Source: Escherichia coli
GTDB taxonomy: Bacteria > Pseudomonadota > Gammaproteobacteria > Enterobacterales > Enterobacteriaceae
DNA length: 64,000 bases
Reading direction: 5' to 3' (one strand)
NCBI RefSeq assembly: GCF_013122565.1
Contig: NZ_CP053258.1
Part shown: piece by piece, positions 40,450 through 45,327 of the stretch
How the letters are laid out: each line of letters opens with the position of its first letter
Position numbering within the stretch: position 1 is the first letter of the stretch
Translations under genes and position numbers: made by a program
The notes under the pieces: generated by a model
The model's database searches: none
Seen by the model: only the letters and a program-made list of their open reading frames with translations
Told to the model about the DNA's origin: nothing

Positions 40450-42114
40450 TTAAAATGTTTCCCAGTTCTCCTCGCTATCTGCCACGGCCATTTTACGCGG
40501 CGTAGCTGGCGTCACGGTTTTTACTACAGCCGATGTTTCACGCTGCTGTTGCTGCTGTTGCTGAATTCGGAACACTGCCACTGCTTCGGTCAGGCGACTG
40601 GCCTGCTCTTCCAGCGCGGCGGCGGCGGCGGCAGATTCTTCCACCAGCGCGGCGTTCTGTTGAGTTACCCGGTCCATCTCAGCAACCGCTAAGCCAACCT
40701 GATCGATACCACGGCTCTGCTCATCAGAAGCAGAAGCTATTTCGCCCATAATGTCCGTCACGCGGGTCACGGCACTGACAATCTCCGCCATTGTTTCCCC
40801 GGCGCTTTCGACCAGCGTAGAGCCAACATCCACTTTCCCCACCGAGTCTTCAATCAGGCTTTTAATTTCACGAGCCGCCTGGGCGCTGCGCTGGGCCAGA
40901 TTACGCACTTCTCCCGCGACCACCGCAAAACCGCGCCCTTGCTCACCCGCACGCGCAGCCTCAACCGCGGCGTTCAAAGCCAGAATATTGGTCTGGAAGG
41001 CAATGCCGTCAATTACGCTGATAATATCGGCGATTTTCTGCGAACTGGTGGAGATATCGCGCATAGTCTGCACCACGTTATCTACCACTTTGCCGCCGCG
41101 TTGCGCCGTTTCAGAAGCACTTAATGCCAGATGGCTGGCCTGGCGCGCATTCTCGGCGTTCTGTTTCACCGTTGCGGTCAGTTGCTCCATGCTGGCTGCA
41201 GTCTCTTCCAGCGAAGCGGCCTGTTGCTCGGTGCGCGAAGAGAGATCGTTATTGCCGGTAGCGATTTCGCTGGCACCGCTATAGATGGCATTGGCCCCGT
41301 TGCGCACATCACCGACGGTACGCATCAGCTCTCCCTGCATATGGCGCAAACTCTCAGCCAGTTGCCCCATCTCATTAGAGCCATCCACCTCAATCGGTTT
41401 CACCAGATCGCCGCTTGCAATATGACGAATGCTGTCAATCAGGCGATTCATTGGCGCTACCAACGAGGCTTTAATACCGAACCAGACGGCGAAGATGACC
41501 GCCAGTACGGCGATCATCACGCCCACCAGAATCCACATCGCCTGGCTGTAGGAGGCATGGTTATCGCTGACGGCGATATCATAGAGCCGATCGTTTTGCT
41601 CCATGTAAGCCACATACTGCTTCTCGAAACCGTCCTGATATCCCTGGGTCGGCTGATCAAAGAACTCGTTGATTTTGCCTGCACCTAACAGTTGGATCAG
41701 CTCCGCCAGCGCATTGTGATAAATATCGTAATTACGTTTGATCTCTGCCGCTGCGGCGGTGCTCTGACGCGGGTCACGCGGCAACGCTTCGTAATCCGCC
41801 CAGTTTTTTTCCGCCTGTTTCAGCGAAATACTGGCACTCTGCATCAGCTCAGCAACGGTTGAACCGCTACCAATATTGTTCTGATCCATCATGTAGCGGA
41901 TACCCGCGCGGTTGAGGGTGTTACGCGTCTGCAACAACGCGACCCAGCTGCCATTCAGCGTGGATTGCTGCTGGCGAATGGTTTGTAAAACAGTGAAATT
42001 TTCTTTGTCATTCTTTAAGGCATTAAAGAACAGACCGCCTGATGTCAGTTGTAAAAGGCCAAAAACGGCCAAAACCAGCAGTAAGCTGGTCACGATCTTG
42101 ATACGTTTTAACAT
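40450..42114 (-). CDS. tsr: Methyl-accepting chemotaxis protein I (serine chemoreceptor) Tsr, with expanded poly-Gln tract
   Basis: [27 protein letters not shown] and MCP signalling domains; C-terminal NWETF pentapeptide. Confidence 0.95.
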
Positions 42115-42144
42115 GGTTTCTCTTTCCTGTGGACCGATGCAAGA

Positions 42145-42171
42145 TTTTCGGCCTGAAATGAGAAAACTTTA
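42145..42171 (-). promoter_or_regulatory. Sigma28 (FliA)-type promoter for tsr: TAAA-N15-GCCGAAAA
   Basis: Minus-strand TAAA (42171..42168), 15-nt spacer, GCCGAAAA (42152..42145), one mismatch to the GCCGATAA consensus; about 30 bp upstream of the tsr ATG. Confidence 0.55.
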
Positions 42172-42341
42172 TAGGTAGCGACTTGAAACTGGTTAATTTT
42201 ACCTCACTTTTTTAATTTTTGTTCAAAAATACAATAACCACTTATTGATACATTTTCTTTTCTTATTTTTTTCACACGAATTGTATCTATTTTGAACGAA
42301 ATATTTTATAGAGTGTGGAATTTTAAGAAAGGACATCTGAA

Positions 42342-42884
42342 ATGTTAAACCGTGACTTCGATCATCTCTCAACGCTATTACATCTCTTTTTTGAACGTGA
42401 GGATATTTGCCAAAAGCTTAATATTATTGACCAAAACAATATCACCGGTTGGGAAGTGTGGTTCCAGGTAGAGTTTGCTAATATGCTCTGCTCAACAGAC
42501 CATGAATGGTGGCGTGAACAAGCACTTTCCTGTGATATGCGCAAAAAACCTGAGCGCCCGACACTACGCACAGATTTCTTACTACGTAAAAAAGGCTGGG
42601 CACAAGATAGCTATATCGCGCTTGAAATAAAACAAAACAGAGACGCGACCAGTTGTGTTAAAAATATGATCGCAGACTTAGAAAAAAGCGCAAAAATAAA
42701 ACGTTCCGAACTCGATTTACGCAGTTTCTGGACCTTGGGTATCACCCCTATGATAGACAGGGAAAGGCTGGACTCTCTCATCGATTGCTATTTAGATGAG
42801 AAATTTTATCTTACTAAATCTCGTAAAAAACACGTTTTACTTAAAGAAATAAATAACACACCATATTGCTATATTGTTATTTAA
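42342..42884 (+). CDS. Hypothetical 180-aa protein, AT-rich, with PD-(D/E)xK-like motif arrangement
   Basis: SD AAGGA 8 nt upstream of ATG; candidate motifs E (WEVWFQVEF), D (LRTDFLL), ExK (IALEIKQ); low GC versus flanking genes. Confidence 0.5.
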   Translation: MLNRDFDHLSTLLHLFFEREDICQKLNIIDQNNITGWEVWFQVEFANMLCSTDHEWWREQALSCDMRKKPERPTLRTDFLLRKKGWAQDSYIALEIKQNRDATSCVKNMIADLEKSAKIKRSELDLRSFWTLGITPMIDRERLDSLIDCYLDEKFYLTKSRKKHVLLKEINNTPYCYIVI

Positions 42885-42992
42885 TATTTATAGCATGAAT
42901 ATAATTTTTAAATGAGTTACACAACCGAGGGCTAAAAATCGCTTCGGTTGTGATCATCATCACATAAATAACCTTCATAAACCTTGCTCAAA

Positions 42993-43020
42993 ACCGCTCA
43001 ACCGCAAAACTGACCGCTTA
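42993..43020. promoter_or_regulatory. Putative BtsR (YehT) binding site: direct repeat ACCGCTCA-N12-ACCGCTTA upstream of btsT
   Basis: Two copies of ACC(G)CT(C/T)A about 160 bp upstream of the btsT start, matching the recalled LytTR direct-repeat motif. Confidence 0.5.
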
Positions 43021-43176
43021 CGTCCCTAAAATAACCACTCAGTTATTTACCTTACTTTACGCGCGCGTAACTCTGGCAACATCACTGCAGGATAGCGGTC
43101 AATTTACCTCCTCAAACGCAACGCAAACCTAGAACGGCTTCGGCCAACTATTAATCAATACATGCCAGGTTTTACT

Positions 43177-45327
43177 ATGGATACTAAAAAGATATTCAAG
43201 CACATACCCTGGGTGATTCTCGGAATCATCGGTGCATTCTGCCTCGCGGTAGTTGCATTACGTCGGGGGGAGCACGTCAGCGCCCTGTGGATCGTGGTCG
43301 CCTCTGTGTCGGTGTATCTGGTGGCGTATCGCTACTACAGTTTGTACATCGCCCAGAAGGTGATGAAACTCGACCCCACGCGCGCGACGCCTGCGGTTAT
43401 TAACAACGACGGTCTGAACTACGTTCCGACCAACCGTTACGTGTTGTTTGGTCACCACTTCGCCGCTATCGCCGGTGCTGGTCCGCTGGTTGGTCCGGTT
43501 CTCGCCGCGCAGATGGGCTACTTGCCTGGCACGCTGTGGCTGCTGGCGGGGGTAGTGCTGGCCGGTGCGGTACAGGACTTTATGGTGCTGTTTATCTCCT
43601 CTCGCCGTAACGGCGCATCTCTCGGTGAGATGATCAAAGAAGAGATGGGACCAGTACCGGGGACTATCGCGCTGTTTGGCTGTTTCTTAATCATGATCAT
43701 CATCCTCGCCGTCCTGGCGCTGATTGTGGTTAAAGCCCTGGCCGAAAGTCCGTGGGGTGTCTTCACCGTTTGCTCAACCGTACCGATTGCGCTGTTTATG
43801 GGTATCTACATGCGCTTTATCCGTCCGGGGCGTGTGGGTGAAGTCTCTGTCATTGGTATCGTGCTGCTGGTTGCCTCTATCTACTTCGGTGGCGTGATTG
43901 CTCACGATCCGTACTGGGGTCCGGCACTGACCTTTAAAGACACCACCATTACCTTCGCGCTGATTGGCTATGCGTTTGTTTCCGCACTGCTGCCGGTGTG
44001 GCTGATCCTCGCGCCGCGCGACTATCTGGCAACCTTCCTGAAAATCGGCGTTATCGTCGGCCTGGCGCTGGGTATCGTGGTGCTGAACCCGGAACTGAAA
44101 ATGCCTGCGATGACCCAGTACATTGACGGTACTGGCCCGCTGTGGAAAGGCGCTTTGTTCCCGTTCCTGTTCATCACCATCGCCTGTGGTGCGGTATCTG
44201 GCTTCCACGCGCTGATCTCTTCCGGTACAACGCCGAAACTGCTGGCTAACGAAACCGACGCGCGTTTCATTGGCTACGGCGCAATGCTGATGGAGTCCTT
44301 CGTGGCGATTATGGCGCTGGTTGCAGCGTCCATCATCGAACCGGGTCTTTACTTCGCGATGAATACCCCGCCTGCTGGCCTTGGCATCACCATGCCTAAC
44401 CTGCATGAAATGGGTGGCGAGAACGCGCCGATCATCATGGCGCAGCTGAAAGACGTTACCGCACACGCGGCAGCGACCGTCAGCTCCTGGGGCTTCGTGA
44501 TTTCGCCAGAGCAGATCCTGCAAACCGCGAAAGACATTGGTGAGCCTTCTGTCCTGAACCGTGCAGGTGGTGCGCCGACGCTGGCGGTAGGTATCGCTCA
44601 TGTGTTCCACAAAGTGCTGCCGATGGCTGACATGGGCTTCTGGTATCACTTCGGTATTCTGTTCGAAGCCCTGTTCATCCTGACCGCGCTGGATGCGGGT
44701 ACCCGTTCTGGCCGCTTTATGCTGCAAGACCTGCTGGGTAACTTCATCCCGTTCCTGAAAAAAACCGACTCTCTGGTTGCTGGTATCATCGGTACTGCGG
44801 GCTGTGTGGGTCTGTGGGGCTACCTGCTGTATCAGGGCGTGGTCGATCCGCTGGGCGGCGTTAAGAGCCTGTGGCCGCTGTTCGGTATTTCCAACCAGAT
44901 GCTGGCAGCCGTAGCGCTGGTACTGGGCACCGTTGTGCTGATTAAGATGAAGCGCACCCAATACATCTGGGTAACTGTTGTTCCGGCTGTATGGCTGCTT
45001 ATCTGCACCACCTGGGCGCTGGGTCTGAAACTGTTCAGCACCAACCCGCAGATGGAAGGCTTCTTCTACATGGCAAGCCAGTACAAAGAGAAGATTGCTA
45101 ACGGTACTGACCTGACGGCGCAGCAGATTGCCAACATGAACCACATCGTTGTGAATAACTACACCAACGCAGGCCTGAGTATTCTGTTCCTGATTGTGGT
45201 GTACAGCATCATCTTCTACGGTTTCAAAACCTGGCTTGCGGTGCGTAACAGCGACAAACGTACTGACAAAGAAACTCCGTACGTTCCAATCCCGGAAGGC
45301 GGCGTGAAGATCTCTTCGCACCACTAA
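43177..45327 (+). CDS. btsT: Pyruvate/H+ symporter BtsT (YjiY), CstA family, 716 aa
   Basis: MDTKKIFKHIPWVILGIIGAFCLAVV; CstA-family multi-TM; ORF track extends to 43162. Confidence 0.9.
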   Translation: MDTKKIFKHIPWVILGIIGAFCLAVVALRRGEHVSALWIVVASVSVYLVAYRYYSLYIAQKVMKLDPTRATPAVINNDGLNYVPTNRYVLFGHHFAAIAGAGPLVGPVLAAQMGYLPGTLWLLAGVVLAGAVQDFMVLFISSRRNGASLGEMIKEEMGPVPGTIALFGCFLIMIIILAVLALIVVKALAESPWGVFTVCSTVPIALFMGIYMRFIRPGRVGEVSVIGIVLLVASIYFGGVIAHDPYWGPALTFKDTTITFALIGYAFVSALLPVWLILAPRDYLATFLKIGVIVGLALGIVVLNPELKMPAMTQYIDGTGPLWKGALFPFLFITIACGAVSGFHALISSGTTPKLLANETDARFIGYGAMLMESFVAIMALVAASIIEPGLYFAMNTPPAGLGITMPNLHEMGGENAPIIMAQLKDVTAHAAATVSSWGFVISPEQILQTAKDIGEPSVLNRAGGAPTLAVGIAHVFHKVLPMADMGFWYHFGILFEALFILTALDAGTRSGRFMLQDLLGNFIPFLKKTDSLVAGIIGTAGCVGLWGYLLYQGVVDPLGGVKSLWPLFGISNQMLAAVALVLGTVVLIKMKRTQYIWVTVVPAVWLLICTTWALGLKLFSTNPQMEGFFYMASQYKEKIANGTDLTAQQIANMNHIVVNNYTNAGLSILFLIVVYSIIFYGFKTWLAVRNSDKRTDKETPYVPIPEGGVKISSHH

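Follow-up and report, generated by a model that had tools for sequence, protein, structure and literature searches.

The btsT gene (formerly yjiY), which encodes a pyruvate/H+ symporter, is preceded by a series of short direct repeats in the 64-kb stretch of E. coli DNA analysed here (the window). Which of these repeats make up the operator of the response regulator BtsR (YehT), and how are they arranged with respect to the promoter that they would serve? The BtsR operator upstream of btsT is an already described site, and btsT is the single BtsR target (PMC5936718). The main value of the present analysis therefore lies in the correct annotation of a known, re-identified operator, with the BtsR site at 42993-43041 and the published pair at 43013-43041. 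We assign a probability of about 0.9 to the reading that positions 42949-43176 are the btsT (yjiY) promoter and control region, composed of a three-repeat BtsR array, an extended -10 promoter and a CRP site. The array, and the degeneracy of its distal copy in K-12, may also be of use to pyruvate-sensing research.

A phased array and the published pair

The features discussed below are as follows.

40450-42114, minus strand: tsr, the gene upstream in the window
42342-42884, plus strand: 180-aa ORF between tsr and btsT
42949-42964, no strand assigned: perfect CRP consensus TGTGA-N6-TCACA (TGTGATCATCATCACA), at the upstream edge of the conserved control region
42965-42992, plus strand: variable spacer from the CRP site to the repeats, holding ACCTTC (42971-42976) and ACCTTG (42981-42986)
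42993-43000, plus strand: distal copy 1, ACCGCTCA, from the window sequence and a pattern scan; the first motif of an earlier note on this DNA
43013-43020, plus strand: middle copy 2, ACCGCTTA, from the scan; the second motif of the earlier note and upstream half of the presumed published pair
43034-43041, plus strand: proximal copy 3, ACCACTCA, from the scan; overlooked by the earlier note, downstream half of the presumed published pair
43046-43066, plus strand: conserved block TTTACCTTACTTTACGCGCGC in the -35 zone, with no good -35 hexamer
43074-43082, plus strand: putative extended -10, TG (43074-75), G, CAACAT (43077-82), from conservation
43089-43176, plus strand: putative 5′ UTR of about 88 nt, with the GGCTTCGGCC hairpin (43136-43145) and the Shine-Dalgarno AGG (43167-43169)
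43177-45327, plus strand: btsT, the regulated gene, from the ORF list and the RefSeq start

The earlier note had picked out ACCGCTCA and ACCGCTTA, 12 bp apart and about 160 bp ahead of btsT, as a LytTR-type direct repeat like that reported for yjiY/btsT. Sequence and scan confirm both octamers and their spacing, and they begin 184 and 164 nt upstream of the ATG at 43177. This start agrees with the RefSeq annotation in identical genomes, and an in-frame ATG further upstream (43162) was not conserved in an alignment of 29 Enterobacteriaceae. The third copy begins 143 nt ahead of the start codon. All three copies read along the btsT strand; their starts are 20 nt (copies 1 to 2) and 21 nt (copies 2 to 3) apart, leaving spacers of 12 bp (43001-43012) and 13 bp; octamers with 12- and 13-nt spacers fit the general layout of LytTR operators. 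Because a period of 20/21 nt is about two helical turns, the three repeats would lie on one face of the DNA.

An array of this kind is not expected by chance. The motif ACCRCTYA has 11 matches on both strands of the window, against 5.9 expected, and the three copies ahead of btsT are its only phased run there. When the window was locally shuffled 1000 times, a phased run of two or more copies arose in 6 shuffles and a run of three or more in 0.

For the YehT/BtsR site of K-12, Kraxenberger et al. (2012, J Bacteriol 194:4272) reportedly describe ACC[G/A]CT[C/T]A as a direct repeat whose two halves are separated by 13 bp, and the mutagenesis in that study is said to name only two repeat copies. 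The ACCGCTTA/ACCACTCA pair agrees with this motif and spacer; the pair at 42993/43013 is spaced by 12 bp and lacks the G/A alternation. Given the G/A alternative, ACCACTCA must be one of the two copies, and its sole partner at 13 bp is ACCGCTTA. We therefore take copies 2 and 3 (43013-43041), which alone match the motif with its 13-bp spacer, to be the published YehT pair.

The oligonucleotide called 'yjiY YehT bs', used experimentally as a YehT binding site, spans all three copies (PMC4847170). Window positions 42988-43045 are identical to it at 52 of 58 nt. Five of the six mismatches fall in the 5′ flank, the fifth being position 1 of copy 1, and the other falls in a spacer; copies 2 and 3 have none. 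In the oligonucleotide, ACCGCTTA-N13-ACCACTCA stands at the 3′ end behind about 25 nt of upstream flank, and the parallel YpdB oligonucleotide likewise carries its named sites A and B at the 3′ end (PMC4847170). Oligonucleotide design, the site as reportedly described, and the precise agreement of these copies with its degenerate motif and spacer length all point to copies 2 and 3. The earlier note had the right locus, as the 52/58 match confirms, and mispaired the repeats, since three conserved copies at even spacing make up the site. It had named a published footprint lying elsewhere as a refutation, and this holds by half: the two sites overlap at one copy, and the published site extends downstream from there, not upstream.

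LytTR sites are described as two repeats of 9-11 nt with spacers of 11-13 nt, and flanking DNA affects binding (PMC4847170). The 12-bp spacer of copies 1 and 2 is inside this range, both copies are perfect ACCRCTYA in this strain, and both are conserved across genera. It is nonetheless improbable that the functional repeat is ACCGCTCA/ACCGCTTA (42993-43020), aided by ACCttc and ACCttg upstream. Such a pairing omits ACCACTCA at 43034, which the reported G/A motif and 13-bp spacer require; K-12, in which the site was defined, carries GCCGCTCA at the upstream position; and it is the proximal copy that is held at a fixed distance from the -10. The proposed half-sites are present upstream of the repeats, but they find no support as sites. 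They start 22 and 12 nt ahead of copy 1, out of phase, agree with the motif in ACC alone, and occur neither in the three further E. coli haplotypes compared nor in other genera. Being out of phase and not conserved, they are probably chance occurrences. The sequence ACCGCAAA (43001-08), which abuts copy 1, was ruled out as a repeat site, as it too is out of phase and unconserved.

Conservation of the three copies and the role of copy 1

Four E. coli haplotypes with unrelated upstream sequence were compared: the 180-aa ORF type of the window, the bare spacer of K-12, and types with hpaBC or an amino-acid deaminase gene. All four have in common the CRP consensus, the three repeats and all the sequence that follows. 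Copies 2 and 3 do not vary among them, and copy 1 hardly does; the haplotypes differ from the CRP site up to copy 1 and in the spacer between copies 1 and 2. Between the CRP site and copy 1, positions 42965-42992 are only about 40% identical to K-12 (by eye, in an ungapped comparison), and the hpa- and deaminase-type haplotypes differ here too. The length of 28-29 nt is kept among them, and the sequence is not conserved across genera. Copy 1 is GCCGCTCA (A to G at position 1) in K-12 and E. albertii and ACCGCTCA in the other E. coli haplotypes.

The window thus resembles the K-12 yjiY YehT/BtsR site in locus, orientation, copies 2 and 3, the 13-bp spacer length, and the downstream promoter and 5′ UTR. 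It differs in having a perfect ACCGCTCA in place of GCCGCTCA, G instead of A at spacer position 43021, another haplotype in the 28 nt that separate copy 1 from the CRP site, and the 180-aa ORF where K-12 has a bare tsr-btsT spacer. To our knowledge, BtsR binding and BtsSR- and pyruvate-dependent activation have been published for the K-12 allele only. Haplotypes were counted with short specific queries, at a coverage of at least 80%, in 5426 complete E. coli genomes; the counts are lower bounds. The K-12 haplotype was found in at least 2029 genomes, the hpa/deaminase haplotype in at least 2252 and the window haplotype in 361, O157:H7 strains among them. Haplotypes with a perfect copy 1 are therefore carried by at least 2613 of the 5426 genomes, about half.

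A broader scan for btsT, with one genome per species, gave 80 loci, from which 67 upstream regions (Enterobacterales plus Gilliamella) were used. Phased copies were defined as ACCRCTYA with at most one mismatch, 19-22 nt apart. Two or more were present in 63 of the 67 regions, three or more in 46 and four in 12. Among 13,400 shuffles of these upstream regions, 0.5% had two or more phased copies and 0 had three or more. No phased ACCRCTYA array was found upstream of the btsT homologue in Rosenbergiella or in the Pseudomonas loci scanned.

The pattern was recovered by a MAFFT alignment of 29 Enterobacteriaceae made blind to the motif. Conserved islands, split by freely varying spacers, correspond to the CRP site (GTGAT-N-ATCACAT), copy 1 (AACCGCTyA), copy 2 (gACCGCTTA), copy 3 (AACCrCTCA), CTTTACGCGCG, TCTGGCAnGAT and the Shine-Dalgarno sequence. 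Copy 2 is the best conserved copy across genera, and copy 3 is also conserved. The copy 1 columns AACCGCT are at least 90% conserved between two variable flanking spacers, which argues that copy 1 is under constraint like that of the two published copies. A table of information content was excluded from the evidence as circular, since its sites had been picked by motif. Others have noted that BtsR motifs are conserved and that the E. coli promoter functions in other genera (PMC5552118). Enterobacter sp. Ag1 and Cedecea neteri keep three phased copies, with a different and longer leader and the start context ATGAAT.

What, then, does copy 1 do? It is probably an auxiliary site, and the odds that it contributes to regulation are roughly even. 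In the fuller form of this idea, the natural BtsR operator is a three-site array (four in some genera) that repeats every 20-21 nt and is conserved across Enterobacterales, and its distal site is functional in nucleation or cooperativity; we rate this tentatively, at slightly below an even chance. It is also possible, at a level well short of even, that only copies 2 and 3 matter and that copy 1 is a non-functional relic or a by-product of duplication. K-12 and E. albertii tolerate the A to G change at position 1 of copy 1, 17 of the 67 regions have just two phased copies at the one-mismatch limit, and the K-12 study reportedly named two copies. This naming suggests that copy 1 may be dispensable, at least as the G variant. 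A relic would, however, hardly be expected to show the 90% column conservation between free spacers, the three or more phased copies in 46 of 67 regions and in none of the shuffles, or the prevalence of a perfect copy 1 relative to the K-12 haplotype given above.

The conservation of a distal copy that is degenerate in K-12 appears to be a modest new point beyond the textbook two-repeat site. If the three-site operator is correct, E. coli alleles with ACCGCTCA and those of the K-12 type with GCCGCTCA would differ in pyruvate sensitivity or in the shape of the induction pulse. Because the laboratory strain K-12 has a degenerate distal copy, work in it may underestimate the cooperativity of wild alleles.

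A fourth phased copy occurs in Citrobacter, some Enterobacter, Phytobacter, Proteus and Budvicia, in the stretch equivalent to window positions 42965-42992. In K-12 the same position (its locus ~1780-1810) holds GTCACTTA, a 6/8 match exactly 20 nt upstream of GCCGCTCA by eye; the window haplotype has no fourth copy.

Among known LytTR systems, the classical operators (AgrA P2/P3, ComE, PlnC/D, VirR, FsrA) have two imperfect direct repeats, each of 8-13 bp, separated by about 12 bp and followed by a weak promoter (PMC4064291, PMC4847170). The btsT array differs from these in having three copies, or four in some genera, with conserved phase. A LytTR regulator with three sites at one promoter is known from Pseudomonas aeruginosa, where AlgR binds RB1-RB3 at algD; two of those sites are far upstream of the promoter, whereas the btsT array is contiguous and phased at 20-21 nt (PMC4064291).

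The closest comparison is with the paralogous LytTR regulator YpdB (PyrR). Its site at the yhjX promoter, GGCATTTCAT-N11-GGCATTTCAT, has a 21-nt period and lies just upstream of the core promoter (PMC4847170). Its recognition sequence is unrelated to that at btsT, YpdB does not bind yjiY DNA, and two sites are named for yhjX (PMC4847170). YpdB follows an 'AB-BA' scheme in which upstream site A is filled first and promoter-proximal site B second; site B is thought to contact RNA polymerase and to clear quickly, giving pulsed expression (PMC4847170). YpdB is likely a model, by analogy, for sequential and cooperative binding of BtsR. By eye, the yhjX oligonucleotide in the same paper carries a degenerate third copy, GTCATTCAT (compare GGCATTTCAT), 20-21 nt upstream of site A (PMC4847170). 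The YpdB system may thus also use a three-copy phased array.

Could YpdB itself, rather than BtsR, bind the btsT repeats? This would explain the published cross-talk of the two systems, and btsT expression does fall in ypdA, ypdB and yhjX mutants (PMC5936718). We consider it very unlikely. The PyjiY oligonucleotide, which contains all three copies, served as the no-binding reference for YpdB-D53E in SPR (PMC4847170), the YpdB motif GGCATTTCAT is unrelated, and species that lack YpdAB (Salmonella, for example) still control btsT via BtsSR (PMC9504724).

Core promoter, CRP site and leader

A consensus scan found no strong sigma-70 promoter on the plus strand here. This absence is what an activator-dependent promoter would lead one to expect. 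The TTTACCTTACTTTACGCGCGC block in the -35 zone is kept in Escherichia, Citrobacter, Enterobacter, Klebsiella and Kluyvera. Downstream of it, CAACAT (43077-82) appears to be a weak, TG-extended -10. The distances from the proximal copy and from the CRP site to this element are fixed. In 25 of the 63 regions with at least two phased copies, TGnCAnnAT starts 38-40 nt past the first base of the proximal copy. A -10-like hexamer, with A second, A or T fifth and T last, is offset by 42-43 nt in 43 of the 63 regions and by 41-45 nt in 49; in the window the distance from the start of the proximal copy to the -10 hexamer is 43 nt.

The btsT transcription start would then be near 43089. A full-text literature search for a measured btsT transcription start returned nothing relevant. 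Relative to the putative start, the repeats are centred at about -51.5 (copy 3), -72.5 (copy 2) and -92.5 (copy 1). Another pairing, TAACTC (43068-73) as the -10 with TTTACC (43046-51) as the -35, was rejected because TAACTC is not conserved in the alignment.

Transcription of btsT from a sigma-54 promoter is also very improbable. The sequence TGGCAACATCACTGCA (43074-43089) has GG (43075-76) and GC (43087-88) at a -24/-12 spacing that fits TGGCAC-N5-TTGCW. In E. albertii, Citrobacter, Enterobacter and Klebsiella, however, TGnCAnnAT is kept and the GC is not. As the GC is unconserved outside E. coli, the spacing is probably a coincidence. Moreover, BtsR is a REC-LytTR protein without an AAA+ domain, and therefore cannot activate sigma-54.

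The most economical model, with BtsR as the activator of a sigma-70 promoter, would run as follows. BtsR, a response regulator of the LytTR type that the pyruvate sensor BtsS phosphorylates, would bind the ACCRCTYA repeats on the btsT strand. By analogy with its paralogue YpdB, it would fill the same-face array from distal to proximal, sequentially and cooperatively; occupancy of copy 1 and this order of binding are putative. The proximal BtsR monomer would then contact polymerase at the extended -10 promoter. With an extended -10 this weak and no good -35, the most likely task of bound BtsR is to recruit or position sigma-70 RNA polymerase.

The CRP site, whose centre is some 120 nt ahead of the -10, could provide the published catabolite control. 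The 64-kb window contains TGTGA-N6-TCACA only here, with 0.07 matches expected. The four E. coli haplotypes, which have unrelated sequence further upstream, all keep TGTGAT..ATCACATA unchanged. The site is also conserved in the alignment of 29 Enterobacteriaceae, and in 31 species a CRP-like site precedes the start of the -10 by 118-121 nt. Deletion of crp abolishes btsT expression (PMC7730263), and btsT is controlled by CRP, LeuO and CsrA (PMC5936718). On this evidence CRP probably occupies 42949-42964. Its centre would be at about -132.5 relative to the putative start, and some 130 nt upstream is an unusual position for direct activation, which counts against such a role.

CsrA control of btsT is published (PMC5936718). 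In the putative leader, the hairpin at 43136-43145 (GGCUUCGGCC) has a UUCG loop, and the stem reads GGC/GCC in E. coli and AGC/GCT in Kluyvera, Pseudocitrobacter, Superficieibacter and others, one compensatory pair. The 5′ UTR as a whole folds no better than its shuffles (z = +0.73), and an Rfam scan of 42100-43400 gave no match.

Hpa-type E. coli (2012EL-2448, locus ~1369-1491) and E. albertii have a 123-nt insertion in the btsT 5′ UTR, placed between the UTR hairpin and the Shine-Dalgarno sequence. The insertion (..GTGAATCCCCGGGAGCTTACAACAGTAAGTGACAGGGGTGAACG..) may be an ERIC/IRU repeat, which its sequence resembles. Such an insertion would make the leader of this CsrA-controlled mRNA longer and change its structure.

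A variable cassette site beside the control region

The conserved btsT control region begins exactly at the CRP site, beside a variable gene-cassette site, which we regard as a second modest new point. Because conservation starts at the CRP site, the promoter would be insulated from very different upstream contexts. From tsr to the CRP site (42115-42948), E. coli lineages carry different cassettes: the 180-aa ORF, nothing (K-12), hpaBC or a deaminase gene.

The 180-aa ORF does end at 42884, directly ahead of the region considered by the earlier note. It had been called unannotated there, and RefSeq in fact lists it as a hypothetical protein (WP_000934391.1). Its GC content is 0.385, compared with 0.54-0.56 in the neighbouring genes, and it is present in about 361-362 of the 5426 complete genomes. 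It has weak, sub-threshold similarity to a TnsA-like endonuclease N-terminal domain (Pfam E = 0.068) and a weak, sub-threshold match to the PADLOC 'orphan methyltransferase' model (E = 9e-4).

A hairpin follows the ORF at 42920-42952, with an 11-bp stem (CACAACCGAGG / CTTCGGTTGTG) and no T-run; the 91-nt fold has z = -4.9. The right arm of this hairpin shares sequence with the left half of the CRP site. At the same place in the hpa and deaminase haplotypes, the CRP site is abutted by a GC-rich hairpin with a T-run behind it, which by eye resembles an intrinsic terminator.
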